Source of the DNA: a virus
Taxonomy: Duplodnaviria; Caudoviricetes
Virus record (IMG/VR): IMGVR_UViG_3300037067_011302
Coordinates: 32,001 to 96,000 of that record
Strand: one strand, 5' to 3'
Length of the DNA stretch: 64,000 bases
The notes beneath the pieces were generated by a model. The model searched no databases. It saw nothing but the letters and a program-made list of their open reading frames with translations, and was not told where the DNA came from. Position 1 is the first letter of the stretch; the number at the start of each line of letters is the position of its first letter. This document shows, in pieces, positions 14,243-55,986 of this stretch. The translations under genes and the position numbers were made by a program.

Positions 14243-14515
14243 ATGATCATGTCGACGCAGAAGATGAACCTCTCTCAGGTGATGATGCTACGGGCAATCA
14301 GGTCGTGGATCACAGAGGGAAAGATGCCACTGAAAGTAAGAGGAACGCTGGATGAGGTAAGGATCGTGGGTGAGGTTGCTGAAGCCTCACGCGCACTACA
14401 CCTTGAAGTCAATGGCGATGATGCATCGTTGGTCAAGATCAACGAACTATTGTCGAGGAAATGTGCCGTCGCAAAAGAGTTCGAACGAACGTTTGGGTTC
14501 AAGTACCCATTCTGA
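14243..14515 (+). CDS. Hypothetical protein
   Basis: 90-aa ORF divergent from the tape measure gene. Confidence 0.55.
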   Translation: MIMSTQKMNLSQVMMLRAIRSWITEGKMPLKVRGTLDEVRIVGEVAEASRALHLEVNGDDASLVKINELLSRKCAVAKEFERTFGFKYPF

Positions 14516-15779
14516 TTCTTCTTTTTGCGGTTTCAATAACACGAGAAGACTTATCGTCTCGGAAAGACTCATTATTCATCATTTGTTGAAGATACTTGGG
14601 TTCAATTCTTCTTGCAACCATGTCACGTACATTAATGCTATCATCACTCATCATTTGTGAAAGATGTTGTACATCAATACGTTCTGCGACTATTAATCGT
14701 ACTCGTCCATCCACGTCATTCATCATCTTGATCAGATATGATGGTTCGATACATCTTGCGACCGCAGTACGCACGTCGGGATAAATACTTTTCATCATTC
14801 TTGGAAGATATGATGGATCAACGCGCCAAGCAACGGCGGCACGTACTCCACCATTTTCATCATTCATCATCTCTGGCAGATATTTTTGATCGATCACTCT
14901 AGCGATTAAGACACGAATATCAGCATTATGATGTTGAATGTAACGTGGCGCAATTTTTTTCATTGTGTTACCAGCGTTCTGCACAATTAGTCTAAGCATT
15001 GCGGCGTCATCATCGTACAATTTTAACGCTTGTTCGATCTCTTCTTCAGTCGCTTTTCCCAATTTGATCTTCGCCAACAGGCTCATCTCTCGCTTCGGAG
15101 CGTCCTGCTCAACAATTTTCAACAAATTTCTCAATTTAATGGGAACTTTTTCAAGTAATTTGTCGGTCGCGTCAAAGATGTCAACTCCTTGGACTTCATT
15201 CTTTACATCTCTCTTTGCCGCAAACGCCACCTTGTAGAGCGGATTCGTGTCGGGTAGTGTTTTAGAAAGCGCAAAATAGAACACAACATTTGCGCTCGTG
15301 TACTGTTCAAAGTATGTGTGATCCTTCATCGTGATACACCACTTGGTGCCTGAACCGTACAACTGCGATGCACCTTTGTTCTTCACGTGGACGAGCTCGT
15401 AATCATCATCCTCACCCATCTTCTCAACGCCGGATTCCTTTGTCGCCTTTCGTTCCTGAGTCTTCGTCGGCGAAATTGACTTCAATTCATCTTCAAGTTC
15501 CTTCAACGTCTTGTACGCGTTGATGTCCCTGTTCTTAAACTTAGGACCATTCTTATGGAAGAACTCAACGGTCGGAATCAAATCGTTGACGCTTACACCC
15601 AACGATAATTGCTTTGCACTCCACATCAAGTACTTCTGAGAACCTGAAGGATCTGAAGAAGCCAGCTCATCAATCTCTTTTTCGAGTTCAGGGTACTTTT
15701 TCTTCGCATCAGAAACGCGGTCCTCAAGCAGCAGGACCTCACTGATCAGGCGGCGCAACGTTCCGAGGACGATCTTCAT
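14499..15779 (-). CDS. Repeat-family paralogue 1: conserved N-terminal GxxWCIT domain plus ~6 24-aa LRV/HEAT-like repeats
   Basis: N-terminus nearly identical to 37174..38679 and 54481..55986; repeats MMxDxxxxVRxxVAxRIDxxYL. Confidence 0.85.
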   Translation of the reverse strand: MKIVLGTLRRLISEVLLLEDRVSDAKKKYPELEKEIDELASSDPSGSQKYLMWSAKQLSLGVSVNDLIPTVEFFHKNGPKFKNRDINAYKTLKELEDELKSISPTKTQERKATKESGVEKMGEDDDYELVHVKNKGASQLYGSGTKWCITMKDHTYFEQYTSANVVFYFALSKTLPDTNPLYKVAFAAKRDVKNEVQGVDIFDATDKLLEKVPIKLRNLLKIVEQDAPKREMSLLAKIKLGKATEEEIEQALKLYDDDAAMLRLIVQNAGNTMKKIAPRYIQHHNADIRVLIARVIDQKYLPEMMNDENGGVRAAVAWRVDPSYLPRMMKSIYPDVRTAVARCIEPSYLIKMMNDVDGRVRLIVAERIDVQHLSQMMSDDSINVRDMVARRIEPKYLQQMMNNESFRDDKSSRVIETAKRRIRMGT

Positions 15780-15783
15780 GCCA

Positions 15784-15824
15784 CTAAATAATCAAACGGC
15801 ACGTTAAAACGTGCCGCTCAATCA
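15784..15824 (-). terminator. Hairpin terminator fused to TATTTA late box (copy 1 of an exact 41-bp duplicate)
   Basis: Inverted repeat CGGCACGTT-AA-AACGTGCCG, then TTTGATTATTTAG on the minus strand; identical to 21708..21748. Confidence 0.75.
15785..15790 (-). promoter_or_regulatory. Putative late promoter TAYTTA (representative of 17 copies)
   Basis: Minus strand at 762, 14205, 15785, 20442, 21709, 24849, 27993, 30008, 31241, 37008, 38685, 45371, 46152, 54434, 58010; plus strand at 31709, 54470; all but 21709 lie just upstream of virion, lysis or candidate head genes. Confidence 0.8.
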
Positions 15825-15825
15825 T

Positions 15826-16101
15826 TCAACTGAACCTGCGCAATCTTGACGGTGAGTCTGTCCTCGTATTTCCCAACATCGCTCGCACCTCAGGAGAATT
15901 CTGGTGTAGTGCCCTTGAGTGCGACTCATTGTCCTTGTCGGAATTCCTGCTGAGTTCCTTTGAAATACGGGAGATGAACCACCTCTTGTACTCAACTGGC
16001 AACTCATACGTTTCCTTCCAGGTAAATCCTCCATAATAAATAAGGATGAAGCTGGGTTCGAGGATCAGCTTCTCTTTATCTGCCGACGTTAGGCCAAAGA
16101 A
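15826..16101 (-). CDS. Tail assembly chaperone C-terminal extension (gp51/GT-like), probably reached by a +1 frameshift
   Basis: FFGLT...LIYYGGFTWKETYELPVEYKRWFI; no credible own start; overlaps the end of 16076..16960. Confidence 0.6.
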   Translation of the reverse strand, partial: FFGLTSADKEKLILEPSFILIYYGGFTWKETYELPVEYKRWFISRISKELSRNSDKDNESHSRALHQNSPEVRAMLGNTRTDSPSRLRRFS

Positions 16102-16960
16102 AGGATACGCCGATCGGCATCGACACCTCTTCAACGTGGCCACACGATTCACACGCACACTCCTGCGTCATCATGATTCCTGGCTCGTTGTCCTTGATGT
16201 AGTTACGCAGTGCCAACGAATCACGGGCAGGCATTGACTTCACGAACGTTGCGATCTTGGACCGATCATTGATGCCGTCGATCGATATGATGCTATGAAG
16301 CAATTGCGTGGTCACCACGGCATCGTTCCTCATGCCGAGCTTCTTCTGTCGATCCTTCATGACCATGATCTCTTCTTCATCGGCACCGGTCATGAACTTG
16401 AACGCAACGCGCTTCTTCGTGTACGGAAGCAGGAACATGAACTCATTCACGCCGACGGACGTCGGTTCGAGTTCCAATCGCTTCACGGGAAGTGCAGTGA
16501 GGTCGAACACGTGTTTCGACTTCGCCTCGCACTCAGGACATTCGATCTCAGCGTCGTACTCTGCACCGTATCCCGTGATCCGGATCGCAATCATCAGGGC
16601 ATTCCTGTCGCCGGCGAGCAACGTTGTCGGTTCAACGTTCCTGTTGACGAGGCACGACTTGATGAGCTCAGTGATCACCGTGCCCTTCTTCAAGAGAGCA
16701 CGAGACGTCAGGATGTCCTCCTCCTTTGCCGTCATTGCCTTGATCTCGACCATGTCCTGGCGATGGAACGGGTGGGGCGGTGCGTACGCAACGCCGTTCG
16801 AAGGCAGAGGCACAATTTCAGTCGGAATCTCAAGGCTGAGCTCGTGCCTCTGTGGTTGTGGTTGAGGCTGCACGACGACCTGTCGGGGCACGGGCACGTC
16901 TTCCGTCGAATCAGTTGCAAACACCTTGTTCTTCTGCTCACGTTCGTCCATTGTGTTCAA
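16076..16960 (-). CDS. Baseplate hub assembly / tail chaperone (T4 gp26-like)
   Basis: VPLPSNG, MTAKEEDIL, GDRNALMIAIRITGYG, two CxxC pairs. Confidence 0.85.
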   Translation of the reverse strand: MNTMDEREQKNKVFATDSTEDVPVPRQVVVQPQPQPQRHELSLEIPTEIVPLPSNGVAYAPPHPFHRQDMVEIKAMTAKEEDILTSRALLKKGTVITELIKSCLVNRNVEPTTLLAGDRNALMIAIRITGYGAEYDAEIECPECEAKSKHVFDLTALPVKRLELEPTSVGVNEFMFLLPYTKKRVAFKFMTGADEEEIMVMKDRQKKLGMRNDAVVTTQLLHSIISIDGINDRSKIATFVKSMPARDSLALRNYIKDNEPGIMMTQECACESCGHVEEVSMPIGVSFLWPNVGR

Positions 16961-17136: not shown

Positions 17137-17433
17137 TCACTTCTTGGCTCGTCTTAGCTCCTGTTCAACGATCACTCGTAGGTCAGTCGCCGACAGCTTC
17201 ACGCTCTCCGACTGACGCACGGCTCCCGGGGACCTCTCACCGACCAATGCATGCGTGACAATGCTCACCTGCTTACGTAGTGGATCAAATGCACTCGCCT
17301 TCTTCAGAGCAGCGATGATGTCCTCGAACGCCTCAGCAGCTGAGTCGGCAATGTTCATGTCCTCAACGTACTCATTTACCGCCTCGAGCTCTTCCTTGAT
17401 GATCCGTTTGAGATCGTTGTTCGAAATTTTCAT
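17137..17433 (-). CDS. Small protein with two capsid-targeting-like motifs
   Basis: MKISNNDLKRIIKEEL and VKLSATDLRVIVEQEL. Confidence 0.65.
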   Translation of the reverse strand: MKISNNDLKRIIKEELEAVNEYVEDMNIADSAAEAFEDIIAALKKASAFDPLRKQVSIVTHALVGERSPGAVRQSESVKLSATDLRVIVEQELRRAKK

Positions 17434-17489
17434 CTTGCCTCGTAGACAAATATGTTGATCAACAACTCTCTAAGCGAGAAACGTTCGAT

Positions 17490-18252: not shown

Positions 18253-18272
18253 GGTGAGGTGTAGTTTTTTAT

Positions 18273-19910
18273 GTGTCGTCTATTGCCAGAATTACGTGTC
18301 CTCGATGTGAAGCGTCATTTGGACAGGAAAAACGATTCATTGAACACCTAAAAATCGTTCATGAAATTGATGACGTCCTTGAATTTTATGTCAACACATT
18401 TCACAACGGAATACACCCAACATGTTCCTGCTGTGACGACTGCAAAGAACGTCTGTCGTGGTGTAGTTGGAAAAAAGGATTCACATCGAAGTACATTCGA
18501 GGGCACAATGCACGAGTGTACAACGTATATGCGGATCCTTCTTATCGTGATAAACTCGCCGAATCAAGACGAAAGGCGATAGAAGAAGGAAGGTTTACTT
18601 CATGGAACAAAGGTCTCACGAAGGAAACCAACGAGAAAGTTGCATCTGCGTCTAAGAAAGCTGGTGTTACGCTACATGAACGTTATGTAACGGGTTCACT
18701 CATCAATTGGCGTATATCAGATCCAGACAAGGGGGCTGAGGCTGCACACAAATCATCGCTCACAAAACGTGCACAATTTGCTTCTGGCGAACTATCTGGT
18801 TCGTGGAATAAGGGTCTCACGAAGGAAACAAGCGTTGCTTTGATGAAGATTGGTAGAAATATTTCAAAGAGTTACGATCGTCGTGAAATAAAGCAACGTT
18901 TCAGTATAGAAGAATTTGATGCACAGATTGCTGCACACTCTGACAAATTCGAACTGATCACAGATCCATTGTTATATAGAAGTAGTAAACGAACGATCCT
19001 TGAATTCAAGTGCAAAAATTGTGGAGCAACACAATTCAAGACACTTGTAAAATTGAACAATACGCCGAGGTGCTTTGAGTGCATGCCAAAAGCGTCAATT
19101 GCACAAATTGAAATTTTTGAGTTTGTCGAATCACTTGGATTCAACACGATTCTAAATGACAGAAAAACAATTTCACCGTTAGAGTTAGACGTGTATGTCC
19201 CATCTTCATCATTCGCCATTGAATTTAATGGGCTCTATTGGCACAGTCGACCACCTCTGAATGATGAATTTAGAATGCAGAAAAAATTGAATACATGCAA
19301 AAAAGTTGGAATTGACTTGTTAAACGTATTTGAAGATGAGTGGGAACATCATCAAGAAATCATTGAATCACTCATCGCCACTAGACTTCACATCTACAGG
19401 AGAACTTTCAGTGCTAAAGAACTGAACGTTGTCATTTTGAACACTAACGACGCAAAATCGTTCTTTGACGAAAATCATCTCGAATGCTACGTCCCAACAA
19501 CTATCACATTTGCTCTACAAACAATTGATGGTGAAATAGTTGCTGCGATGTCATTGAAAAGACTATTTCACAAAGAAATCAATGCATCTGTCGAAATTGC
19601 CAGAGCTTGTTCATCGATGAATTGTCATGTCTTTGATTGGGTAGAACGTTTGTCAGAGGCGTCACTAAATTGGTCTCAACAAACGTATGGAATCGATCGA
19701 TTGACGATATTCATCGATGAACGCATTGATGATGTGAAACAATTTTCACCTTGTTGGACACAGATAGGTGCTGAACAAACACCTAGATCATGGATCACCA
19801 ACAACAAATCAAGATTAGAACCACTCGACGAAAATTATTTGTCGAAACACGACAAAAAGATTTTTGGATGTGTTAGAACGAAGTGGTCTTATCCAAGATT
19901 TAATTCCTAG
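18273..19910 (+). mobile_element. Free-standing homing-type endonuclease (C2H2 + Cys module, WNKGLTKET repeats, DUF559/Vsr-like nuclease)
   Basis: CPRC..HL..H, two WNKGLTKET, ELDVYVP..FAIEFNGLYWH, VFEDEW; AT-rich; antisense to the tail operon. Confidence 0.8.
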
Positions 19911-19913
19911 ATT

Positions 19914-20475: not shown

Positions 20476-21693
20476 ATGATTATGTTCTCACAGACAATGG
20501 ATGGAATCACAGGATCAACGATCTCGATCATCACGTGTCCGATCTGTGGTGAGTACTCATCAAAGCGTGAAACTAACGTTGAACGACACATGTTCGAAGC
20601 GCACGGCACGACGCTCGTTGACGAATACGTCAAGCTGCACGGACGACGACAGTGTGCGTGTGGGTGTGGCGGCGCGACGACGTGGCACGGTTGGAGGAAG
20701 GGATTCAGCACCTCGATCTGCGGTCACAACGGTAACATCTACTCGTTCTACGACCACAACAAAGCAACCGCCATCAGCGAAAGAAGGCGCGCGGCACTAC
20801 GTGGCAAGCAAAGTTGGGCAAAGGGATTGACGAAAGAAACTGACAAACGCATTGCACGACGAGCAAAATTGTCCACAATCAGCAAGCGTAGGACTACCTC
20901 ATGTGCTCGTGGTTCACGTGGTCAGACTGAGCTGTCGAAGTTCGTCGAATCGCTCGGCTTCACTGTCGGAAACAACGTCAGAGGAATCATCGGAAACAAG
21001 GAACTTGATATTTTCCTCCCCGAACACTTGTTTGCAATCGAGTACAACGACCTCTACTTACACAGCGAGAGGTTCAAGAGTTCGACGTACCACGAGGAAA
21101 AGTCGTCTCGGTGTGAGGCGATCGGCCTGTCACTGATGCACGTGTTTGAAGATGAGTGGGTGTACAAGAGGAAGATCGTCGAGTCAATCATCAAGAATCG
21201 ACTGAACGTTCCCGACAAACGCATTGACGTCGGATCATGCACTGTGAGAACGATCGACAGGAACACATCCGACTCATTCTTCGACGAATGTCACCTAGAC
21301 GGAAAGAGCGACGTGTCAGGACAGTCAACGATCGCGCTCTTCAACAATGAAGAGTTGGTCTACGCCATTGCAACGACGAACGGTGAAGTCCTGAGGTGCT
21401 GCCCGGCGCTGGGAACGAATGTCCCGGGTGGCCTCGTTGAACTATTGAAACAGCGACCAAACGTCAACTCGATCATCGTCGACGAGAGGCTCGGCAGCAC
21501 GAACTCAGCACTTCGCTCTGCAGGGTTCTCTCCGACGAACGAGACAACACACCGCTCATGGTGGACAGACTACGATTCCAGGTACGACTCATCGCTGTGT
21601 ACTAGAGACGAAGCGGGCACAAGAGGTCTCTACTTCATCCACGGGTGCAGCGTTAGGAGGTGGAAACGAATCACTACTCGTCACGATTTATAA
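20476..21693 (+). mobile_element. Free-standing homing-type endonuclease, paralogue of 18273..19910
   Basis: CPIC..H...H, CACGCG, WAKGLTKETD, ELDIFLP..FAIEYNDLYLH, VFEDEW; sits between sheath and tube. Confidence 0.8.
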
Positions 21694-21707
21694 CATATCG
21701 CATGTCG

Positions 21708-21748
21708 CTAAATAATCAAACGGCACGTTAAAACGTGCCGCTCAATCA
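21708..21748 (-). terminator. Hairpin terminator plus TATTTA box (copy 2 of the 41-bp duplicate)
   Basis: Identical to 15784..15824; 20 nt after the sheath stop codon. Confidence 0.75.
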
Positions 21749-21767
21749 CTCAATCACCGTCAAAACA

Positions 21768-24700
21768 TCACAAGGAGGTCGCTGAATTACCAACCACGAA
21801 GTCCAGCGATGCGTACTCAAGTGCCTTGAGCGGCTTCACAAAGATCTTTCCACGGATCGTGTTGTTCTCAACGTCAGCCTGAGTCGTCGTCGAAGAATCG
21901 ATCATGATCTTGTACCTCTCGAGCCCCGACAACGCCTGAACCCTCTGCAACCTCGGTGTGACGGCCGCGGAGAACTTCGCCAGTGTCGTTTCCCTATTCT
22001 GCTCGAACATGATCGTGTCTGCGATCTCTCTGACCTGTCGACGAATGTCGATCATGAGTCGCCTGACGTTGACGCGGTCGAGCGACGAAGCGGCAGCCTG
22101 GAGCGTCTTCTGCCCCCACACCATCACGCCACCCTTCGGCGCAGTTCCAGACGACGGAGCGCCAGGGAATGCAATAAGCGGATTGATGTTTGCGTCGTAC
22201 AACACGTCCATGTTGTTCTTGGAAAGTTGCACCCGAGCTTCGAGGGTCGTCGACAGAGCACCTCGAGTGAAACCGGCAGGTGCAAACCAAGGATATCCAA
22301 CCGCATCATTCAAGGCCAGTGCTCCGAGGACAACGACCGACGGAGGAACGAACAGGTTGGTGTCCGTGTTTGGATCGGTGATGCTGACGTCAGGGAAGTA
22401 TGCAGCCGCGAATGACGTATCGAGCGAACGATCAGTCAGTTTCGTTGCCGTCAATTGGACGGCTGGGAACTGTGAATCAGCGGTGACATTCTCCTCATCG
22501 TTATCGACCTGTTCGATGTCCATGACGTACATGGCATCAAACCTCTCCTCGACGGCATCGATTGCAGCGTCTGTCACGATCGGATGCCTAATGCCAGGAA
22601 TCGCGAGCAGCTGAATGTCAACGTTCACGACGTTCTTCATCACCTCGATTGCCTTCAGGTACGCCCTGACGTTTGGACCGTTGTTGTACAGGCGATCTGC
22701 ATCGTTCATGTCAGCAACGACTGCGTTGTCATTGATGTTTGTTTCATCCTCATTGAAGAGGTTCGTTCCGTCAAATCCACCCTGCATGAACGCCGTGAAC
22801 TTAACGAATCGCCTGTTCGCTTGAGTGATGTCATCGACCGAGAACCTTCTTGACTTTGCCGTCTCGTCAGCCGAGATGACGCCGTTCCGGACGTACGTTG
22901 CCTGATCCCATTCCTGAGGATCGGCGAGCGTCGTCGATGAGGTGACCACGGACAGGTTCTCGAGGGTGAACATGTTGCGACAGAACTTGTCAGAATCAAT
23001 GATTCCATTCTCCGCAGACTCGGCTGTCCCGGCGTTGTCACCGGCCGCAAATCCCATGTTGGTGACCGCAAATTCAGGGAAGTACTTTGCGTACGATTCG
23101 AGCGACTCATTCTTGAGAGTGCTGGCGTTCTTTGTCGTCAACGACGTGACGTGCTCAAACTGCGTTCCCCAATATAGGAGAGGATTGACGAGCACCTTCA
23201 CGCCTGATCCCTGTGTGATATTCTCGCGGAATGGAACGGGCGGCTCGACTGCACGCTTGTACGCAGTCGGAACGATCAATTGTTGCGTCGTCGAACCACT
23301 GACGGGAACGAAGCTCGTCATTGGAAGCGAACCAGACGTCACAATGTGATAGGGACCTCGGAATCCAACAGGAAGTGCGGTGGGATCGACGGTCTCATTC
23401 TCAATTCCGGAGTCGACCTCGATGCGAATGAGGTTTGACTTATTCTCGTAGTTTCCCTCGACCACGAGCTTCTGTGCAGACTCCGTGCGATCGAAGTCAT
23501 AGAATGCGTGAACGTCGCCGATGATCTTTGAGATGTAGCGATCTGACGAAGGATCGAGGCTAAGACCTCTCCACTTTTCGAGCGCAACTTGATTGACGTC
23601 GTTATCGTTCCAATCTCGAACGATCAGATCAAACGTTCCGTACTTGTACGTATCGTCAGACGAAGGCGCGAGGTTCTCGATCGACAACTTATAGTTCGTA
23701 GAGATTCCGGAACCAGCATCGAGAGCATGGACCCTAAACAGGTTGACCGGATTTCCACCGAATTTCTGTGAAATGAACCACGGCGATCGAGCGTGCGAAA
23801 AGCGATCAACGAACGTCTCGTAGTTAGGAACGTATGCAGTTCCAACATTGCGAGCACACGAACCAGTTGTGATGAACGCAGCGGCTTCAGCTCCTGACTT
23901 GAACGCCGTCGATGCACCTGCACCGCTGAGGTTATCAACAATTCCTGTTCCGGTCACGACCGCCGTCGTCGGGTGAATGTCCCAGTGAGCGTACAGGTAG
24001 TGTCCGGCCTTCTGACAGAGCAACGGATCGGTGTTGAATACGTTCGCAAAGTAGTTCGGCGAAGTGTAGTCAAACGATGCAGTGAGCACGTTCGGATACA
24101 ACGAGTCGAGGCCCTGATGGCCATTCAGGAGCATCACAAACTCCTCCTTGGCGACGGTACCGTCCAACAACACGACCGCACCCTCGACCGCACCGTGGGC
24201 TGTGGTGGTGGTTGCAATGAGTGTCGACGGAGGAGGAGTGTTGTCGCCCTCACGAGAGTTCGACAACGTGAGGATGACGCCTGACGGTGCCATCAATACG
24301 CCACGAACGATCGGAATAGACGATGTGATTCCAGGCGTGATGCCCCCGGCACCCTGTAATCCTGCATCACTAAAGATCGTTGAACCCAAAGATTCAGACA
24401 TCAGTGCACAGAGAAAGTACGTCCGACCGAGAACGCTGTTGCTGCCTGAGTTTGCGTACTCATTGCCGAACAACGCTCCATCGCTCGCACGAGGTTGATC
24501 CTCACCGACGGTGAAGCCGGCGCTCGTGACGCTGCCATCTGCGTTGCGCTTGAGGCCATTTCCGACGCCGAGCACTCTGATGAATGTTGCGGCACCAGCA
24601 TTGCGTAGCCACTCTCTGACGGCCAACGGTCCGAACTTCTTTCCATCCGACAGCCCAAACTTCGAGTAAAAATCGTCGACGATGCCGACGGTGATCGGAA

Positions 24701-37173: not shown

Positions 37174-38679
37174 TCACTTGCTCAATCTCATCATCCTAAT
37201 TGATGAAATTTCATTGTGTTCATGGCGAGCAAGAACGTTCGTTGACCGCTTTTGATCAAGCTTTTCCAACATCTGATCGAGAAATTTTACGTCAATTTTC
37301 TTTGCAACTTCAATTCGAACGTCGTAGCTTTCATCATCCATCATCCCAGGAAGGTACGATGGATCAATGCGTCTAGCGACCGCGAGTCGAACGCTATAGT
37401 GATCGTCGTTCATCATCTCAGACAGATGTGACTTATCAATCCTATGCGCAACCGCACGACGAACGGCAACGTCACTATCGTGCATCATCTCAGGTAGATA
37501 ATCATCGTTAATTCGTTCTGCGACTGAATACCTTACCTTCCAACTCTCATCATGCATCATCTTAGACAGGTGTTCCAGATCGACGGAATCTGCGGCTGCA
37601 AGTCGCATTTCCACGTCATCATCGTGGATGAAGTTGACCAAGTATGACGGGTGAATCCTCGAAAGGATTAGAAGTCGAACGTCGTGTGCTTTTTCTCTCT
37701 CAAGCATCTCAGGCAGGTATTCTTGATCGATGCGTTTAGCAACGTGATATCGAACGGTGGCGTCTCTGTCCTTCATCATTAACTGAAGGAAAAGTTTGTC
37801 AACGTACTTTGAGACAACTTGCCTCACCTTGACGCTCTTGTGCTTCACAAATTGTTCAATGATGTCGGCATCAATCTTTTCGAAAATTGCTTTCAACGTG
37901 ATTGAATCATCCTTGTACAATTCAACCGATGAGACGATCTCCTCTCGCGAGGCCTCACCCAACTTGATCTTTGCCAGCACACTCTTCTCACGTTCCGGAG
38001 CATCGTCGGTGACGATGTCGGCAAGTTTCTCAAGTTCCTCAGGAACGCCACCCAAATTATAATCGGCGGCATCGTAGATCTCTAACTCTATGACGTTGTT
38101 GATCAAATCACGTTGCACGGCAAACGCTAACTTGTAAAATGAGTCAGTCTTTGGCAACGTTTTTGATAGTGCGAAGTAGAACACCACGTTTGCACCGGTG
38201 TACTGCTCGAAGTACGACGCATTCGCCATCGTGATACACCACTTCGTTCCGGCACCGTACAACTGTGCTGCCTTCTTGTCCTTGATGTAGATGAGTTCAT
38301 ATTCATCATCATCAATGATTTTCTCCGCACCGGCGACCTTCGTCGCCTTACGCTCCTGTGTCTTTGTCGGTGCGATCGACTTCAACTCATTCTCAAGTTC
38401 CTTCAGAGATTTATACGAGTTGATGTCCTTGTTCTTGACCCGCGATGTGCTCTTGTGAAATAGCTCAATCGTTGGAATCAAGTCATTGACGCTCACGCCG
38501 GACGATAACTGCTTCACTCCCCACAACAGGTACTTTTGTGAGCCAGATGGATCTGAGGATGCGAGTTCATCGATCTCCTTCTCAAGATCAGGGTACTTTG
38601 TCTTCACGTCGGAGACGCGGTCCTCAAGCAGCAGGACTTCACGGATGACACGTCGCAGCGTTCCGAGAACGATCTTCAT
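37174..38679 (-). CDS. Repeat-family paralogue 2 (~8 24-aa LRV/HEAT-like repeats)
   Basis: MKIVLGTLRRVIREVLLLEDRV..., GTKWCIT; own TATTTA box. Confidence 0.85.
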   Translation of the reverse strand: MKIVLGTLRRVIREVLLLEDRVSDVKTKYPDLEKEIDELASSDPSGSQKYLLWGVKQLSSGVSVNDLIPTIELFHKSTSRVKNKDINSYKSLKELENELKSIAPTKTQERKATKVAGAEKIIDDDEYELIYIKDKKAAQLYGAGTKWCITMANASYFEQYTGANVVFYFALSKTLPKTDSFYKLAFAVQRDLINNVIELEIYDAADYNLGGVPEELEKLADIVTDDAPEREKSVLAKIKLGEASREEIVSSVELYKDDSITLKAIFEKIDADIIEQFVKHKSVKVRQVVSKYVDKLFLQLMMKDRDATVRYHVAKRIDQEYLPEMLEREKAHDVRLLILSRIHPSYLVNFIHDDDVEMRLAAADSVDLEHLSKMMHDESWKVRYSVAERINDDYLPEMMHDSDVAVRRAVAHRIDKSHLSEMMNDDHYSVRLAVARRIDPSYLPGMMDDESYDVRIEVAKKIDVKFLDQMLEKLDQKRSTNVLARHEHNEISSIRMMRLSK

Positions 38680-38714
38680 GGCGCTAAATATAGCGACACG
38701 ACATCATTCGTGGA

Positions 38715-46210: not shown

Positions 46211-46618
46211 TCATGTGCCCAAAAGCTTTTTCTGTGGTGTGGCAAACGCTAGGTCTGCCCAACGAGACGAACCATCTCCAAACACCTCCTCAGGAGTTCC
46301 GTCAAAGTGCTCAAGGCCGGCGCCGGCGATGCCAGAAGAATCTCCCTTGATCATCTCGGGCAGCGTCGTTGCCGCAGTGTCAGCAAGAATCGCCTCCATG
46401 AGTGGGTTACCACCAGCGTTACGCTTGATGGCCTCTGCGACCTCTGGTGACGGTCCGGTGGGCCTCTGCTGCCTCATGCCAATAGTTCTCTGTTGCTTGG
46501 GTGACTCGCTCACCTGGGGACGGCGGTGTTCCGTCAACGCTCCAGACAAACCCTCGTCAAGGATCTCAACCAAGCACTCCTTCACAATCTTCTTCAAGTC
46601 ATCCCGCGACAGTTTCAT
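46211..46618 (-). CDS. Head-module protein with capsid-targeting-like leader
   Basis: MKLSRDDLKKIVKECLVEILDEG; GGAGG SD. Confidence 0.7.
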   Translation of the reverse strand: MKLSRDDLKKIVKECLVEILDEGLSGALTEHRRPQVSESPKQQRTIGMRQQRPTGPSPEVAEAIKRNAGGNPLMEAILADTAATTLPEMIKGDSSGIAGAGLEHFDGTPEEVFGDGSSRWADLAFATPQKKLLGT

Positions 46619-47501: not shown

Positions 47502-48554
47502 TCATCGAGCGTTTAGAATCTCATTCATGATGCGATCGATCCTGTCGCTGCGGTTGAACACCCTACTCAGTTCCGCCGCCGTGATGACCCTTCCCTCTGG
47601 GAGCATGAACGCCTGAGCCGTCGATGGATCAGAAACGACGTCGAAGCAGATCAACTGAAAGTCATCCTGAACAACGAAGTAATCGCCTTGTTGCTTCGTC
47701 GAACCAACGCCCCGCGAGGAGATTCCGAGCTTGACGCCTGACTCGACGAGGCCCTTCAGGATCTGACCTGACGGAACCTTATCCAAGATCTCAATCGCGC
47801 CGCGGGCCTCATTTCCCTCCATCTTCACCTCGCGCACGATGTGAGAGACATTCTTGAGGTTGACGACGGACGTCTCCGGATGATCGCAGTTGCCCGTCCA
47901 ACAGACGTGACCATTCTGCTTCATTAGCCACGTTCCGTTCTTGACGGTCACACAATAGACCCTTCCATCGTAGTCGATGACGTCGACGCTCTCACGAGCA
48001 ACTCTCTGAAGACGTTCACTTGTGAACAGTTGAAAACTCGTCGAAGAGTTCTTCACTTCATCGAACAACGCACTAGACTTAATCTTTTTTGGTCGTCCGC
48101 ACAAGTCAGTGATCAAGATGTTGTGGTTTGGCGTCAGACACACGTCATGTGCACGTGAAACACGAATTCTGTGCATCGGTCCACGATACCTACGATCGAT
48201 CTTCCTATCGATTCGTTGAAATTCAAGTTCATTGTTCTCAACGTTCAATGTCGCAATGACTTCATCGTTGGCAATGTCCTTGATTGACTTCCAACCATTC
48301 ACCGTGTAAATTTCAGTCTCAGGTGGAACGCATTCACCCAAGCTCCTGTTTTCATTGATGAATTTCTGGTAGTTTCTGATCTCACGCTCGAGAATCGCCT
48401 TCGGGTAAATTCTACCGTTCTGGTTCAGAGCATCCGCCTTCTGCATCAGGCCGCGCAGGATGATCCTTCCGTCGTTCTTCTCGTACGATTCCTTGATCAT
48501 CTCGGGCGTGTACTCGAGCGGTTGAAACGAACTGATGAGTCTAAGTTCAGACAT
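47502..48554 (-). CDS. Prohead protease (T4 gp21-like) containing a mini-intein
   Basis: NQNGRIYP, LGE|intein|CDHP, LGISSRGVGS, FDVVSDPS. Confidence 0.93.
   Translation of the reverse strand: MSELRLISSFQPLEYTPEMIKESYEKNDGRIILRGLMQKADALNQNGRIYPKAILEREIRNYQKFINENRSLGECVPPETEIYTVNGWKSIKDIANDEVIATLNVENNELEFQRIDRKIDRRYRGPMHRIRVSRAHDVCLTPNHNILITDLCGRPKKIKSSALFDEVKNSSTSFQLFTSERLQRVARESVDVIDYDGRVYCVTVKNGTWLMKQNGHVCWTGNCDHPETSVVNLKNVSHIVREVKMEGNEARGAIEILDKVPSGQILKGLVESGVKLGISSRGVGSTKQQGDYFVVQDDFQLICFDVVSDPSTAQAFMLPEGRVITAAELSRVFNRSDRIDRIMNEILNAR
47889..48332 (-). mobile_element. 148-aa mini-intein without endonuclease
   Basis: CVPPETEI...LTPNH...VYCVTV.NG...WTGN|C. Confidence 0.9.
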
Positions 48555-49438: not shown

Positions 49439-52400
49439 TTAACTATCATCGCGATCCGTGAAATCATCGTCGTCGTCATCAAGCTCGACGATGCCGTCGA
49501 CCTCGTCCTGCACGTCGCGCTGCTCCGACAACACTCGCTCGCGTGGAGCGGAGATTGCGCCGGCGGACTGCGCGTTCCTCAACATCGACAGCACGTCTGG
49601 GCCCAATCCGATCCTAGGACGAGCAGGAACTGACTCCTTGAACGGATCCTTCAACCACGAAGTGTCGTTCGGGTCGCTCAGCGACGAAGCACTGGGACCG
49701 GTCATCTTGACAAAGTCAGGACGGTTCGTCTTCATGCGACGACGGGAGCGATTGTAGAGGTACTTGTGAAGCGTTGGGTTCGGCTTCACCGGAGTGCGAT
49801 CGTTGTCCTGGACGATCTCGAGGTCATCCTGAGCGTTGTCAGAAGACGTCAAGAGCTCAAGCTCAGGAGAACCCTCTTCTTCAGGCTCCTCACTCGCGTT
49901 CTCAGGGGCAGGCTCCGTGGGCTCCTCAGCGGGGGCCTCAGTACCACCCTCTTCACCGCCTCCGGCGGCACCGAATAGGCCCTCAGTGGTCGTGTCATCA
50001 CCCTCGCCTCCTCCGCCACCGCCGGCCGCGACCGCCGCCTCGAGCTGAGCGTCGAACAGTTTGTCCTCGGTGCGCTGGCGCTTGATCGCCTTGATCTGCG
50101 CGGCGTTGAGCCCCCAGACCTCGCTCATGACAAACTCCGTCGAACCCATCGTCTCGGGCAGAGAGGCGGCGATCTCAAACTTTTGACGCCACAGCTCAAG
50201 CTTCTGTTGCTGAGCGACCGTGGACGGGTTGGACAGGCGGAGCGTGAAGTTTTGGAGGTCGTCTCCGTCGAACCCATTCGCGTACAGGTGGATGACGGCG
50301 AGCTTGTTGAGCTCGGCTAGGATTGTCTTTTGGATGGAGGTGATTGTACGGGAAAAACGTATATCCTCCTGGGCGAGTGTAGAACGACTACTATTATGAA
50401 CGAACACTGCACTTAGTACACTCGTAGATGCACAATCATTGGTATTCAAAGGAGATTGTGAACGACAAATGATCGGGAAGTTATGCGTTCCTTCAATTTC
50501 GAGATCATAAACAGGGACAGAGGAGTTAACTCTTGAGTCTGAGGAATTAACTCTTATGAGTTCAATGTTAACAATTTTATGATTGCGACCGACGGACGTG
50601 AAGAATTCAAAAGCAGTCATTCCGTGATCACTCAACATACCTTTCAAGGCAGCACAACCAAAGTTGATCAATCCAGATCTACTCGCTGCAACAACATCAT
50701 CTGACGAACGCAATCCATGCTTCAAACACGCTTCACGTGCCGTCTCAGGTGTCAAGTTCAATTCTGCATTTCGTCTTGCACGTTTAACACCCCAGAGAAT
50801 GTGTTTTTTAGGAACATAGTTCAATGCCTTGACGGCAAAATCATACCAGTCCTCAAATCCTGACCTCATGATCAGAGAACGCACGTATGAAAATCCAATA
50901 GGTAACGAAGCGATTGCAGGAATCGTCTTTCTGCTCCAACACGACCACTCGTACGCTTCGTTCTCCTTGCAGAACTTGATCAGCCAATCGATCGTGTACT
51001 CAGCCTTCTTGCGACGAGACCAGTGACCATCGCCGACGTACTTCGAACGGTACTTTGGATCGTTCCACAGGTCCCTGTTCTGTTGTGACTTGACAGCGCG
51101 GTACTCGGGATCGTTCCAGTTGTCACGCATGACGCTCGACATCTTTTCGTGGATCTCATCACCGTGCACCCATGCACTCAGTGCAGAGTTCTCATCAGCG
51201 TGCTGTGCCTTCATCTGCACCGACTTGAGCTGCCTATGATGAGGAGACTTCAGTGCTGCAATCTTGTTTATCTCTCTGCGCTCAATGACGTCAGGTCGAA
51301 ACCACGTTGTCTCGAGGTTGTCAGAATGGAACTTCCTGTGTTCTGCCCACGTCATCTCAACGAGGTTCTCTGGTTGGTTGTTCTTCTTATTGAAGTCAGC
51401 ATGGTGAATGACTCGACACTTGTTGACCTTGTGATTTCCACCGGTGACATGTTCGTTCACCAACTTATGCGTGTATGACCATTCGCCGTCATTGTTCTGC
51501 AGGACCATCTCATACCCATCGATCAGGTCAAGTCCACCACGCTTCTTGTTGACGGACAATCTCCTGTACAACGGCATCAGGCTGGTCTCTGGAGTGAGCT
51601 CGTCGGCCCTGCGGTACGATCCGTCCCTGAGCATGAACGGATGATTTCCGGTGCATTCTAGAACAGACCCGTCATCCAACGTCACTCTGTAGAGCTCGTC
51701 CACCGTCTTCGTTTGCCACGCATTCAGGATCCTCGACGGAACGATTGTTCCATCTTCCAGAGATGAATACGTCCACAGAATTGGTTTTTCTGCACCCTCA
51801 AAGAGACGCGCGAGTTCGTCGATCCTCTTTGAAGTACCGTCCAACAGAGGAATCTCTGTGTCAGGTGCCAAGCACAGCATGTCGTCGTAGCCGAGATATG
51901 CCCTTGGTATCTTTAAGGCTGCAAATAATTTCTTCTGTATGTACGAAACATCTTCTACGGCCGCTGTATTTTGTCCACCCGGCAGAGTGTCGATCTTCGT
52001 TCCTGTCTCGGCGCCTCGCACCGGGACCAGAATGTCCTCATCGACCGACAAAGCATTGTACCTCAGGTCGACCCGTCCCTGCGTTTGGTCGATCACCTGC
52101 GAGGTCCTGAGCTGCTTCCTCTGCTCTTCAATGTAGTTCTGCACGTGCTCGGGTGGAACGTTGCCCACGTCGATGTAGAAGACCCTTCGCTCCGGCGCTC
52201 GGATCACGCGGTACACGAGCATTGCGTCCTCGATCAGGATCAGCTGTCGCCAAATCCTCCTAGCCGGATCCAAGATTGATGACCCGTAGGGCAGGAATTG
52301 GTCGTTGCCGAGGATCCTAAAGTGCAGCACCTCCCAATTCTCGAGCGTCCTGTTGCCAAGAGTGACCCACCTGAAGCGTACGGCGAATGGGTCGTTCCTG

Positions 52401-54055
52401 TCGTAGTTTTCCTCACGTTCAATCTCGTTGACGGGAATCGGGAATGCATTCACCACGCCGTGCTCCTGAGAGACGTTGACGTACAGGAACGCATCGCCAA
52501 ACTTCACGACGTTTCTGACCCACGGGCGCAGGTTGAACTCAACGTTCAGGACGTTGTAGTAGAGCTCCTCGAGCGTCTCCCTGATCTTAGGATTGTCACT
52601 GTGTATGTGGAGGATGCGGCCCTTATCATCCTGGGCAACTGTTTCGTCGGAATAAATATCTAATGCCGCGCTTATCTCCGGAGTCAGCTCCATCTCGCAA
52701 TTGTGAACAATTACAGTACCTTGCGTAATAAGTCTATACTTTTGTGCTGATTCAACACTGCAAGATTTAATTCCAACGTCACAAGATTTAACTCCTTGAT
52801 GATCGCAAGACTTAATTCCTTCTTTTGCGTACTTCGCCAAAGCAAAATTGTGATGTCCGGCAACTTCGAGGTCATAGACGAACATTGTTTCGCCGTGATC
52901 GATGACAGAGACAACCTTATGATTCTGATATCTCTCGACGAAATCGACAAAATTTTCATAACCCTGCCATTTGATTCGATTTATGACCTTGCACCACGTA
53001 GAATTTACTTTTCTCGCCAATCCCTTCAACGTATCTCCGGGTTGATATGCGTCACAAATCATCTGAAATGTCAACGACTTGTCAGCATTTGCATTTTGCG
53101 AGTGTTTTTGATCAGTCCTACCAGCATTAAACCGACCAGGCTTTTCAGTCTTGTTGTACTCGATCCGCCGTTGACGACGACTGTCGCTTAACATTTGAGA
53201 AGTTCTATCGAGATTGATCCTCAAATCGCCATCATTCTGCCAACGCTTCTTCATCACCGTTGACATGTGTTGTCTTGCGGCAGGATCATCAAATCGTTGA
53301 TTGTTGATCTTAGCGTGCAACGACATGTGATCGTGTACCGACAAAACTTCCAAATTTTCTATTCTATTGTCGCGATGTTTGAAATTTTTATGATGTACGT
53401 GCTCTCCGACGATGAGTTGACGATCCAAGATTGATTCAACGACCATGACGTGCTCAGAACGCCAACGTTTCCCATCATGAATGTATCTGTATGGCGAATC
53501 ATATGTTCGTTGATTCAACGGCATCAATGCAGTGTCAGTCGTCAATTCACATGCCTGCAGGTATGAACCATCTCGAAGCATGAACCTGTGATCTGGCGTG
53601 CACTTTATCTCTGACCCGTCGTCCAACGTGACGGTGACGACCTGTCTGACGCCGTTGCACCTCGCGCCGGTGACCTTCGCAGGAACTATTCTGCGCTTCT
53701 CAGTGTCGTAAGAAAACACCCACTGGTTGACGTCACCCGCCTCCCATGCATCAACGATCTCCTTGATCGATAGTGCACCGACCTCAGACGGCATTGCGAC
53801 CAACGTGTCTCCTGCGAGGCAGAAGTCTTGGTACCGCATCAACCGCTCTGAAAGGTTGTACGCGTTCGACGTTATCGTTGCATACGTCGGCGACAGCGAC
53901 TTCTGGAACAATAGCGCACCGGACGTCTTCGACTTGTCCGGCACCGCCAGCACGGTGTCTCTACCTCTGACCTTCCTCCTGACGATCGGGCCAGCCTTGA
54001 AGATCCGCGTCAACCTCTTAAAGAGACTTCTCTGTTCTCGTTCGCTCTTTGCCAC
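49439..54055 (-). CDS. Portal protein (T4 gp20-like) with two inteins; ~670 aa after splicing
   Basis: PEISAALDIYSDE, EDAMLVYRVIRAPERRVFYIDVGN, TKIDTLPGG, QKKLFAALKIP, QEDIRFSRTI. Confidence 0.95.
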   Translation of the reverse strand: MAKSEREQRSLFKRLTRIFKAGPIVRRKVRGRDTVLAVPDKSKTSGALLFQKSLSPTYATITSNAYNLSERLMRYQDFCLAGDTLVAMPSEVGALSIKEIVDAWEAGDVNQWVFSYDTEKRRIVPAKVTGARCNGVRQVVTVTLDDGSEIKCTPDHRFMLRDGSYLQACELTTDTALMPLNQRTYDSPYRYIHDGKRWRSEHVMVVESILDRQLIVGEHVHHKNFKHRDNRIENLEVLSVHDHMSLHAKINNQRFDDPAARQHMSTVMKKRWQNDGDLRINLDRTSQMLSDSRRQRRIEYNKTEKPGRFNAGRTDQKHSQNANADKSLTFQMICDAYQPGDTLKGLARKVNSTWCKVINRIKWQGYENFVDFVERYQNHKVVSVIDHGETMFVYDLEVAGHHNFALAKYAKEGIKSCDHQGVKSCDVGIKSCSVESAQKYRLITQGTVIVHNCEMELTPEISAALDIYSDETVAQDDKGRILHIHSDNPKIRETLEELYYNVLNVEFNLRPWVRNVVKFGDAFLYVNVSQEHGVVNAFPIPVNEIEREENYDRNDPFAVRFRWVTLGNRTLENWEVLHFRILGNDQFLPYGSSILDPARRIWRQLILIEDAMLVYRVIRAPERRVFYIDVGNVPPEHVQNYIEEQRKQLRTSQVIDQTQGRVDLRYNALSVDEDILVPVRGAETGTKIDTLPGGQNTAAVEDVSYIQKKLFAALKIPRAYLGYDDMLCLAPDTEIPLLDGTSKRIDELARLFEGAEKPILWTYSSLEDGTIVPSRILNAWQTKTVDELYRVTLDDGSVLECTGNHPFMLRDGSYRRADELTPETSLMPLYRRLSVNKKRGGLDLIDGYEMVLQNNDGEWSYTHKLVNEHVTGGNHKVNKCRVIHHADFNKKNNQPENLVEMTWAEHRKFHSDNLETTWFRPDVIERREINKIAALKSPHHRQLKSVQMKAQHADENSALSAWVHGDEIHEKMSSVMRDNWNDPEYRAVKSQQNRDLWNDPKYRSKYVGDGHWSRRKKAEYTIDWLIKFCKENEAYEWSCWSRKTIPAIASLPIGFSYVRSLIMRSGFEDWYDFAVKALNYVPKKHILWGVKRARRNAELNLTPETAREACLKHGLRSSDDVVAASRSGLINFGCAALKGMLSDHGMTAFEFFTSVGRNHKIVNIELIRVNSSDSRVNSSVPVYDLEIEGTHNFPIICRSQSPLNTNDCASTSVLSAVFVHNSSRSTLAQEDIRFSRTITSIQKTILAELNKLAVIHLYANGFDGDDLQNFTLRLSNPSTVAQQQKLELWRQKFEIAASLPETMGSTEFVMSEVWGLNAAQIKAIKRQRTEDKLFDAQLEAAVAAGGGGGGEGDDTTTEGLFGAAGGGEEGGTEAPAEEPTEPAPENASEEPEEEGSPELELLTSSDNAQDDLEIVQDNDRTPVKPNPTLHKYLYNRSRRRMKTNRPDFVKMTGPSASSLSDPNDTSWLKDPFKESVPARPRIGLGPDVLSMLRNAQSAGAISAPRERVLSEQRDVQDEVDGIVELDDDDDDFTDRDDS
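50393..51874 (-). mobile_element. Portal intein 2 (494 aa) with HNH endonuclease
   Basis: L|CLAPDTEI...CTGNHPF...IHHADFNKKNNQPENL...VYDLEIEGTHNF...VHN|S. Confidence 0.92.
52700..53821 (-). mobile_element. Portal intein 1 (374 aa) with HNH endonuclease
   Basis: F|CLAGDTLV...CTPDHRF...VHHKNFKHRDNRIENL...VYDLEVAGHHNF...VHN|C. Confidence 0.92.
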
Positions 54056-54104
54056 TCGCGTGCCTCACTATTTCCAGTTGGGCTCTATCCTACAACAATT
54101 CTAA

Positions 54105-54413
54105 TCACTTCAGGACGTCTTTGCCCTGTTGGACCAACTTTCGCACGACCTTCTGCCTGAGCACTGGAGACACAACGTACGACGAGGGTTCCGTCATCAT
54201 CTTGTCGAGCTTCGTGCAGAGGTTGTCAACGTCGTCCAACAGTGCGTCCTTGACGGGCTTTGGCGCTGAGTCCTGATATTCCTTGAACTGCTTCAGCGCC
54301 TTCATCAGCTTCTCTGCCGACGTCACGAGGTCCTTGATTCCGCCGTGGTCAACGTTCGACAATTCTTCATTGATGATCTTGCACAGCTTATCGTAGGAAA
54401 TTTCGCGCTTCAT
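54105..54413 (-). CDS. Small protein with capsid-targeting-like leader
   Basis: MKREISYDKLCKIINEEL; TATTTA and GAGG upstream. Confidence 0.65.
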   Translation of the reverse strand: MKREISYDKLCKIINEELSNVDHGGIKDLVTSAEKLMKALKQFKEYQDSAPKPVKDALLDDVDNLCTKLDKMMTEPSSYVVSPVLRQKVVRKLVQQGKDVLK

Positions 54414-54480
54414 GTTTAATCCTCGCACACTTCTAAATATGAACGTCAAAGAATCAGCGCATCATAATGTATTTAGCAGC

Positions 54481-55986
54481 ATGAAGATCGTCCTCGGAAC
54501 ACTACGCCGCCTGATCAACGAGGTCCTGCTCCTCGAGGACCGCGTTTCTGACGCGAAGAAAAAGTACCCTGAACTCGAGGCAGAGATCGACGAACTCGCG
54601 TCCTCAGATCCCTCGGGTTCACAAAAGTACTTGATGTGGAGTGCAAAGCAGCTGTCAGCAGGTGCCGATGTCAATGAACTGATTTCAACGATCGAGTCAT
54701 TCCACCAGAATGCGTCGCAATTCAAAAACAGGGACATCAACGCATATAAGACTCTTGGTGATCTTAAGGACGAACTGAATTCAATCACGCCTTCGAAGAC
54801 TCATGAGCGAAAGGAAGCAAAGGAGTCAGGTGCTAAGAAGATGGGTGAGGACAACGGCTACGAACTCGTCCACATAAAGAGCAAAGCCGCAGCACAGTTG
54901 TACGGTGCAAACACTCAATGGTGCATCACGATGAACGGTATGCCGCACTTCGAACAGTACACTGGTGCGAACATTGTGTTCTACTTTGCACTATCGAAGA
55001 CGCTGCCCGACACGGATCCGTTGTACAAGGTTGCGTTCGCAGTGCACCGTGACGAGAACAACAAGATCATAAAGGTCGAAGGCTGGGACGCGGAGGATGA
55101 AAAATTCGACGAAATTCCCAGTGAATTTAACGGTCTCTTGAGGATCGTTGAACAGGACGCTCCAAAGCAGGAGACGAGCCTGTTGGCGAAGATCAAACTA
55201 GGAAAGGCGACTGAGGAAGAGATAGAACAGGCACTTGAACTGTACGATGACGAAGAAGACATTCTGATCATGATCCTCAATTCACCGCGAACTCCATCAT
55301 CGGTGCTTGCGAGGTACATTAATTTTGATTCTCGCTCAAAGTTACGCGTAAGTTCGAGCCGCATTCGTGAAATTGTTGCAGCAAGAATCGACCCGTCGTA
55401 CCTTCCCAAGATGATGAAGGATCGTGACAATGATGTACGACAGGAGGTCGCAAGGCGAATCGACCCGTCGCACCTTCCTCGAATGATGTACGACCCATCG
55501 TTGTCAGTTCAAGAGATCGTCGTTCGTCGAATCGATCCAGAATTTTTACCTAATCTTCTGCACATTCGTAATGTGCCGGTGCGTCTTGAAATTGCACACC
55601 GAATTGACGTCCTCGAGCTCCCCAAGATGATGGATGACATGTCAACAGGTGTGCGTGCTGAGGTCGCAAGGCGAATCGACCCCGAACGCCTACCTGAGAT
55701 GATCGACGATGAATCGGCGGAAGTTCGTAGGATTGTCGCTGAACGAATCGACGCCGAGCATCTCATTGACATGATCGAGGACGACGACTACTACGTCAGG
55801 AGCATCGTCGCCGGCAGGACGAACACGTTGGACCTTCCACACATGATGAAGGACGAGGACGCGCTGGTGCGAATGCAGGTTGCACTACGAATCGATCCAA
55901 AGTACCTTCCCATGATGAAGAACGACGCCAACGATAGGGTCAGGAACACCGTCAGAGATCGACTAGAACAAATCGTCAAGTCTTAG
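54481..55986 (+). CDS. Repeat-family paralogue 3 (~9 24-aa LRV/HEAT-like repeats)
   Basis: Start corrected to MKIVLGTLRRLINEVLLLE, 5 nt after TATTTA; antisense between terminase and portal. Confidence 0.85.
   Translation: MKIVLGTLRRLINEVLLLEDRVSDAKKKYPELEAEIDELASSDPSGSQKYLMWSAKQLSAGADVNELISTIESFHQNASQFKNRDINAYKTLGDLKDELNSITPSKTHERKEAKESGAKKMGEDNGYELVHIKSKAAAQLYGANTQWCITMNGMPHFEQYTGANIVFYFALSKTLPDTDPLYKVAFAVHRDENNKIIKVEGWDAEDEKFDEIPSEFNGLLRIVEQDAPKQETSLLAKIKLGKATEEEIEQALELYDDEEDILIMILNSPRTPSSVLARYINFDSRSKLRVSSSRIREIVAARIDPSYLPKMMKDRDNDVRQEVARRIDPSHLPRMMYDPSLSVQEIVVRRIDPEFLPNLLHIRNVPVRLEIAHRIDVLELPKMMDDMSTGVRAEVARRIDPERLPEMIDDESAEVRRIVAERIDAEHLIDMIEDDDYYVRSIVAGRTNTLDLPHMMKDEDALVRMQVALRIDPKYLPMMKNDANDRVRNTVRDRLEQIVKS

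Follow-up and report, generated by a model that had tools for sequence, protein, structure and literature searches.

Where in the infection cycle would proteins act that begin alike, end in different repeat arrays, and are encoded several times over in one phage? We asked this question for three genes scattered over a 64,000-nt stretch of viral DNA, called the window here, which comprises bases 32001-96000 of a 184,219-bp IMG/VR virus contig (contig coordinates are written G000:C1, or C1 for short). The genes are named c3, c4 and c5, and their products P0001, P0002 and P0003. We found that they belong to a lineage-expanded accessory gene family in a T4-superfamily jumbo phage. Each protein consists of three modules: a leader of about 19 aa, an alpha/beta domain of about 240 aa (the N-domain), and an LRV alpha-solenoid of 4-9 units. 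As for their role, the explanation that we favor, at a probability of about one half, is that they may be cargo of the phage head, targeted there by the leader and combining a constant domain with variable LRV binders.

A constant domain joined to variable repeat arrays

A sequence-only reading of the window had described three open reading frames (ORFs) with a shared N-terminus. All three were found, and they are paralogues (Table 1). Residues 1-262 aligned without a gap across the three ORFs, and P0003 was 73% identical to P0001 and 63% identical to P0002.

The C-terminal parts are made of LRV units. The Pfam family LRV (PF01816) matched with 31.5, 48.7 and 74.4 bits, the gathering cut-off being 21.6, and the arrays matched PDB entry 1LRV with an E-value of 6.6e-14. 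P0001 has five full units and one degenerate unit, P0002 has eight, and P0003 has eight and one more. The earlier counts were about six, eight and nine. Units are spaced by 24 aa in 31 of 32 intervals, with one exception of 25 aa.

The framework of the repeat is formed by columns 1, 2, 4, 9, 10, 13, 14, 16, 17, 18, 21, 22 and 23, and the columns of highest entropy are 7, 8, 11, 12 and 15. In a full-length AlphaFold2 (AF2) model of c5 (pLDDT 94), each repeat unit consists of two helices, the first of 10 and the second of 7 residues, with pLDDT >90. Within the 10-residue helix, the hypervariable columns occupy i, i+1, i+4, i+5 and i+8, which places them on one face in this model. When equivalent repeat units were compared between copies, identity was 46-73% at the framework columns and 5-23% at all variable columns. 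At columns 7, 8, 11, 12 and 15 it was 0-15%, against 60-82% in the N-domain. In every repeat unit, the copies differ completely on one face of the longer helix.

The N-domain is under strong purifying selection in every copy, with a pairwise dN/dS of 0.06-0.2 at a dS of 1.1-2.6, one pair being not computable. The same ratio was dropped for the repeats, since dS between copies is 1.1-2.6 and the numbers of units are unequal. Because synonymous sites are saturated, the randomized repeat face fits diversifying selection and a lack of constraint, or neutral drift, equally well. We also considered the arrays as targets of a diversity-generating retroelement and rejected this, as no reverse transcriptase (RVT_1) match was found in the 184-kb contig, which is about 54% of the genome.

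Close known counterparts of the arrays are the LRV protein of Azotobacter vinelandii (1LRV) and HEAT-like solenoids. The LRV protein has the same 24-residue repeat and, judged by the model, the same helix pair per repeat. Unlike that protein, the phage proteins have no Fe-S domain, carry the viral N-domain as a fusion partner, and differ in unit number (4-9) among paralogues.

The N-domain defines a large viral family

A Pfam scan of the proteins of the copies gave no family for the N-domain. A profile built from the six copies in the contig (see below) retrieved 4,347 cluster representatives at E<=1e-3, and 302 at E<=1e-30, from 1.84 billion proteins. Most of these relatives are 350-700 aa long and carry the domain N-terminally. 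Among 104 representatives, 44 carried LRV, 28 HEAT and 21 LRV_2 repeats; distant members bear ankyrin repeats and are also found as several side-by-side paralogues. One ankyrin-type relative (P0020) had no match among cultured phages. Only six family loci were present in prokaryote genomes of 185,579 species, all of them in metagenome-assembled genomes, and the cultured phages with the family are jumbo phages only (the PA5oct group, CcrBL9 and SCTP-2). The N-domain family is essentially viral. It amounts to thousands of 50%-identity clusters, almost wholly from viruses, is not covered by a Pfam model, and has a clear modular plan of leader, constant domain and swappable repeat array.

W147 and C148 are invariant in alignments of 60 and 104 sequences; D85 and D206 are invariant in the former and nearly so in the latter. 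The AF2 model of the N-domain (pLDDT 93) combines an N-terminal helical part with an alpha/beta core. Sequence search of the N-domain against PDB gave chance-level matches only (E>=0.026), and Foldseek against PDB returned nothing at E<=0.001. An exhaustive structural scan with VIA-align found a weak GNAT-like core at residues ~117-232, with Z 5.0-5.8 where the guide value is Z 8. In BFVD, the nearest Foldseek matches were a PA5oct 'structural protein', a protein of Caulobacter phage CcrBL9, ankyrin proteins of marseillevirus bins, and phage leucine-rich-repeat proteins. Phage proteins annotated as PcfJ ranked after these closer relatives (E 2e-3 to 0.1, probability 0.5-1.0, TM 0.24-0.3).

The domain had been guessed to be PcfJ- or GNAT-like. 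This was reasonable in view of the weak PcfJ signals and the weak GNAT-like core, but neither reaches the level of membership. For Pfam PcfJ (PF14284), with 25 bits taken as the mark of a member, there was no match at E<=1 on the copies and none at E<=10 contig-wide. The same model weakly matched the same region of one relative's copy (16.5 bits) and matched one of the 104 representatives (E 3.5e-4). Compared with PcfJ proper (pCF10 PcfJ and many phage ORFs), no copy here gets any PcfJ score, and TM-scores are only 0.25-0.3. We therefore describe the N-domain as remotely PcfJ-like and not as a PcfJ member. The link gives no mechanism, because PcfJ itself is without known function, and a literature search on PcfJ function found nothing useful.

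The conserved D85, W147, C148 and D206, together with the weak GNAT-like core, suggest an enzyme, which would need no virion. This bears on an explanation that we consider possible, though doubtful: the proteins would be made late and remain in the cytoplasm unpackaged, serving host takeover, anti-defense or assembly help, with an active domain, an LRV array that selects partners, and a leader helix that is part of the fold. The concentration of the family in jumbo phages, which have very large heads, speaks against it.

Copies multiplied within lineages and occupy variable sites

A tblastn search of the contig found six intact copies and one decayed mini-copy, so the family size of three given before was too low. 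The copies outside the window include a tandem pair. The mini-copy (locus L048) has no N-domain and contains two in-frame TAG codons. Read-through of these codons was considered and rejected, as no tRNA genes, suppressors included, were found in the 184-kb contig, and stop-codon use is ordinary though TGA-rich. The 188 called ORFs of the contig end in 143 TGA, 24 TAA and 21 TAG codons, a strong TGA bias.

In a maximum-likelihood tree of the N-domain, the six copies formed one clade (support 100/98). The two copies of the relative L012 and the three copies of L017 each formed a clade of their own. Such own-genome clades indicate that the expansions were lineage-specific, or that copies were homogenized within genomes. 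The duplications are old, because dS between copies is 1.1-2.6.

Insertion sites were compared with relatives. Core proteins of L012 are 30-66% identical to those of this phage. The neighbors of copy c6 are adjacent in L012, where c6 is absent. Here c5 lies antisense between the genes for the large terminase (TerL) and the portal protein; in L012, TerL, a 117-aa gene and portal are adjacent, and c5 is absent. Conversely, the tandem pair of L012 lies between homologues of C1 95075-95482 and 94481-95032, genes that are adjacent here. The closer fragments L014 and L027 hold a copy at yet another site, one without a copy in this phage. L015 and L016 have a copy beside sheath and homing-endonuclease genes, a position where this phage has only an orphan scar of 53 nt. 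This scar marks a lost or moved copy. Fixed syntenic positions in all relatives, which the sequence-only reading had named as contrary evidence, were not seen; the insertion sites differ. Its statement that copies interrupt contiguous blocks was borne out for c5 by the gene order of the relative, and c3 lies between the tape-measure-like and T4_baseplate hub genes.

The orphan scar is flanked by a homing endonuclease gene on one side and a tail sheath gene on the other. At L016:5199-5429 there is a 76-aa GIY-YIG-like endonuclease fragment, which lies, with a 119-aa leader-bearing protein, between the sheath gene and the L016 paralogue. The 119-aa protein is similar to the 98-aa protein in Table 1.

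Relatives carry 1 to 5 copies, and in a 406-kb phage that is 95% complete, a TAA divides the sole copy into two frames (G002:C1:213256-213965). These copy numbers and the split sole copy indicate an accessory role. The copies had been described as a duplicating cassette. The single clade, the non-syntenic sites and the scar give good support to duplication; the duplications are nevertheless old, and a defined mobile element is not involved, because the copies share only ~11 nt of 5' flank upstream of the ATG. The two copies of the tandem pair have the same 36-nt 3' end, and a 25-nt segment is repeated upstream of them. Neither terminal repeats nor a transposase were linked to the copies.

In T4-like phages, PeSL promoter/terminator cassettes shuffle accessory genes (PMC2839356, PMC4122927). 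The family is alike in that copies sit at variable sites between conserved core genes, and in that a 53-nt unit of stem-loop, promoter-like motif and ATG occurs both at the 5' flank of c3 and at the orphan site with 94% identity. It is unlike in that the motif here is late-like and not early, and the composite is common to this single pair of sites alone, the other five copies having ~11 nt. The composite of stem-loop and TAYTTA was accordingly rejected as a mark of all copies. We suggest that the copies would have spread by duplication or illegitimate recombination near promoter or terminator sequences, and would be readily lost.

Variable positions and an orphan scar are also what selfish, hitch-hiking cassettes might leave behind. 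Such cassettes would duplicate near promoter/terminator units or homing endonucleases with little benefit to the phage, and the repeat variation would be neutral decay. The variable repeat positions have diverged to the extent expected of neutral sites, homing endonuclease genes adjoin the orphan site, and the GIY-YIG-like fragment adjoins the L016 copy. We nevertheless regard this as very improbable. All six frames are open with an N-domain dN/dS of 0.06-0.2 despite dS >1, the repeat framework is kept, the architecture is conserved across thousands of clusters, and the copies have ~11 nt of common 5' flank with neither terminal repeats nor a transposase linked to them. Independent expansions and variable sites in several lineages make the family a good system for studying how accessory repertoires grow in phages.

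A promoter-like motif shared with structural genes

Each of the three ORFs had been said to have TATTTA exactly 5 nt before its ATG, and this holds for all three. The pattern TAYTTA-N5-ATGAAGAT occurred four times in the window and not once in 100 shuffles; the fourth site belongs to the unrelated 67-aa gene 553-756. When hexamers with at least 8 occurrences were ranked by how often they fell within 40 nt upstream of ORF starts, TACTTA came first (43%) and TATTTA second (35%), against a background of 2%. Among the genes that follow the two hexamers are those for tape measure and sheath, the scaffold-like gene and further structural genes.

Every copy begins 5 nt after a TAYTTA element. None of the paralogues has a Shine-Dalgarno sequence, and several of their ATGs are closely preceded by stop codons. 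The TATAAATA element of T4 late promoters ends some 5-6 nt upstream of the start site. By analogy, the 5-nt spacing would give leaderless or near-leaderless mRNAs, and the copies are probably expressed late, from transcripts that are leaderless or nearly so. A promoter-like motif common to structural genes argues against proteins that stay in the cytoplasm.

The leader and a possible capsid-loading route

All six copies begin with a basic amphipathic leader of ~19 aa that ends in L-L/F-E (residues 17-19) and is followed by D-R. At the position equivalent to E19, Glu is present in 71 of the 104 family members; Gly comes next in 70, and Lys or Arg at the following residue in 92. In T4, the prohead protease gp21 cuts after Glu; gp23 loses 65 residues in this way and gp24 loses 10, and the internal proteins and Alt lose short N-terminal peptides (PMC9958956). 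A 10-residue capsid targeting sequence (CTS) suffices to load foreign proteins into the T4 head and is removed by gp21, and internal proteins differ between phages (PMC9026906). The phage studied here has T4-type head machinery, namely Gp23, a gp20 portal (Portal_T4) and a gp21-type protease. The latter is the presumed processing enzyme for L-x-E sites. In the capsid protein of the phage, LLE51 and LRE60 are no more than 6 residues away from the position that aligns with the mature T4 gp23 start.

Leaders of this kind are not confined to the paralogues. Similar ones were found on a 67-aa acidic protein and on a 374-aa protein (L046), and looser leader-like N-termini on proteins of 98 and 135 aa (Table 1). 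Further leader-like N-termini occur on 69-aa and 78-aa proteins elsewhere in the contig, with a looser one on a 385-aa protein. With the paralogues excluded, the strict leader pattern occurred at four protein starts and once internally (odds ratio ~95, p 1.3e-5), an enrichment at starts that fits packaging. That similar leaders stand on unrelated small acidic proteins, one of them inside the head-morphogenesis block, speaks against the cytoplasmic alternative. The 374-aa protein has a few HEAT/LRV-like ...VR..AA... segments; it showed no PcfJ-like domain and no Pfam match.

A cultured relative is gp205 of PA5oct (QCG76086.1). Its N-domain is 31% identical over residues 39-172 (E 4e-11), and the fold was matched in BFVD with E 2.4e-10. 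It starts with ...TLYE followed by DK, and its record marks it as a structural/virion protein from ESI-MS/MS (tandem mass spectrometry with electrospray ionization). Unlike the copies here, its C-terminal half has no LRV array, and tblastn found a single place per genome in the PA5oct group. The main text of the PA5oct paper does not mention gp205 (PMC7318152). The annotation of this homologue as virion-associated is a further point against cytoplasmic proteins.

T4-style capsid loading is plausible on these indirect grounds, as it fits the L-x-E leader, the gp21-type protease, the shared TAYTTA motif and the PA5oct homologue. The leader would dock the protein onto the prohead core, in the manner of the T4 internal proteins and Alt, and the gp21-type protease would cut after the leader Glu (Glu19). 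The mature protein of ~45-55 kDa would then be retained in the head and exit with the DNA. The constant domain would provide a common activity or docking, and each LRV array a different binding specificity.

Several observations weigh against this route. The enrichment test of the leader pattern is partly post hoc, because the pattern was derived from the paralogues. L-x-E is short and frequent by chance. Ala takes the place of the leader Glu in 24 of the 104 family members, which rules out universal cleavage at this position. In the AF2 model, one continuous helix (residues 5-28, pLDDT 67-79) runs through the leader into the start of the domain, and the leader may be simply part of the fold. 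The proteins linked to PA5oct particles by mass spectrometry number 93, and 7 of them are 'virion-unrelated enzymes' (PMC7318152); detection there is consequently not specific. The late timing of TAYTTA we infer only from the genes downstream of it. Three of these points, namely the helix continuous with the domain, the Ala in place of Glu19 in 24/104 homologues, and a mass-spectrometry list that takes in non-structural proteins, are also those that favor unpackaged cytoplasmic proteins.

The same PA5oct record could point outside the head, since gp205 is one of several proteins there marked as structural by mass spectrometry. In that case the proteins would be external or peripheral virion parts, such as head decorations or tail and baseplate accessories, whose LRV arrays bind varied host surfaces. 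Solenoid repeats are frequent in binding proteins, and tail or baseplate genes are the neighbors of c3 (tape measure and hub) and of the orphan site (sheath). We consider such a role unlikely. Other copies lie in head/packaging regions or adjoin a methyltransferase, and fiber, spike or decoration domains were recognized in no copy. Short N-terminal leaders with a protease-type site typify the internal head proteins of T4 and not tail parts (PMC9026906). Moreover, a fixed structural role is made less likely by a copy number from 1 to 6 or more and by the split of the sole copy in a relative that is 95% complete.

Returning to capsid cargo, the comparison with T4 internal proteins (IPI, IPII, IPIII) and Alt shows both sides. 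Alike are the presence of T4-type gp23, gp20 and gp21 protease in this phage; an N-terminal leader that is short and has Glu as its last residue and Leu at P3; an accessory, multi-copy gene set that varies between related phages; and the use of one leader type on unrelated proteins (PMC9026906). Unlike T4, the leader has ~19 aa where the CTS has 10, it is conserved family-wide with Ala for Glu in a quarter of the members, and the cargo would be a conserved 240-aa domain with a solenoid in place of small basic proteins. In sequence, the family is also not homologous to Alt or the T4 internal proteins. Head cargo with a T4-style leader is of a known kind; here it would be built on a large uncharacterized domain family.

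Should the leader be a signal for capsid targeting, a function-level meaning would come to a large block of jumbo-phage dark matter, the T4 internal-protein model would extend to large modular cargo, and natural leaders would be available for loading proteins into big capsids. More tentatively, the portable L-x-E leader might define a general capsid-loading route in jumbo phages of the T4 superfamily, with this family as its main cargo, and the virus-only PcfJ-like domain, possibly an enzyme, might be aimed at different host targets by interchangeable, fast-diverging LRV or ankyrin solenoids. The proteins would then form an injected effector repertoire, with a logic comparable to that of repeat-containing effectors of bacterial secretion systems.

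Gene setting

Table 1. Features of the gene family and its surroundings. Positions are those of the window unless marked C1 (contig).
Feature	Position	Strand	Size	Remarks
c3 (P0001)	14499..15779	(-)	426 aa	leader 15723-15779; N-domain 14994-15722; LRV array 14502-14942
c4 (P0002)	37174..38679	(-)	501 aa	leader 38623-38679; N-domain 37894-38622; LRV array 37270-37851
c5 (P0003)	54481..55986	(+)	501 aa	leader 54481-54537; N-domain 54538-55266; LRV array 55339-55983
Tandem pair of copies	C1 18251 and 19531			
Sixth intact copy	C1 100575-101969			
Decayed mini-copy (L048)	~C1 113480-113762			outside the window; leader (MKMRIFVLRRLIRES..LLEDR) joined directly to three LRV units
TATTTA of c3	15785..15790	(-)		5 nt before ATG; stem-loop just upstream; 53-nt unit 15777-15829
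TATTTA of c4	38685..38690	(-)		5 nt before ATG
TATTTA of c5	54470..54475	(+)		5 nt before ATG
Orphan scar	21701..21753	(-)	53 nt	stem-loop, TATTTAG and ATG, 9-codon ORF; 94% identical to c3 5' flank
Acidic protein, similar leader	553..756	(-)	67 aa	MKISLRELRKVIEE...; TACTTA-N5-ATG
Protein, looser leader-like N-terminus	17137..17433	(-)	98 aa	MKISNNDLKRIIKEE...
Protein, looser leader-like N-terminus	46211..46618	(-)	135 aa	MKLSRDDLKKIVKE...LDE, then G; between protease and scaffold-like + capsid genes
Protein, similar leader (L046)	G000:C1:8330-9454		374 aa	MKVNLRSLQRVVNE...; few HEAT/LRV-like segments
Tape-measure-like gene	10235-14200			
T4_baseplate hub gene	16076-16960			
Two related homing/HNH endonuclease genes	18273-19910 and 20476-21693	(+)		
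Two adjacent tail-sheath paralogues	21768-24830 and 24942-27962		~1000 aa each	
Gp23-type major capsid protein	41698-43599		633 aa	
T4 gp21-type prohead protease	47502..48554	(-)	350 aa	Peptidase_S77, 49.7 bits
Portal_T4 gene	49439-54055		1538 aa	intein-splicing and HNH endonuclease insertions
T4-type large terminase (TerL)	55983-57713			Terminase_6N present in the phage

CheckV put the completeness of the contig at 54%, which for 184,219 bp implies a jumbo phage. A megablast search with 20 kb of the window gave zero matches to cultured phages, so the phage is without a close cultured DNA relative. PADLOC defense models gave a sub-threshold HEAT match only.

Some of the head and tail genes have unusual forms. 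The Gp23 match in the major capsid protein is split (residues ~73-124 and 341-613), which implies an insertion of ~200 residues relative to T4 gp23. The Peptidase_S77 match is likewise split in two, and the protease ORF apparently carries an insertion. The two tail-sheath paralogues were ~34% identical in comparisons with a relative. The pair of homing/HNH endonuclease genes sits inside an otherwise minus-strand structural block. A 1055-aa ORF (58313-61480) fuses SbcD-like (Metallophos) and SbcC-like (SMC_N/AAA_23) parts, and the same fused form is also present in the relative L012.

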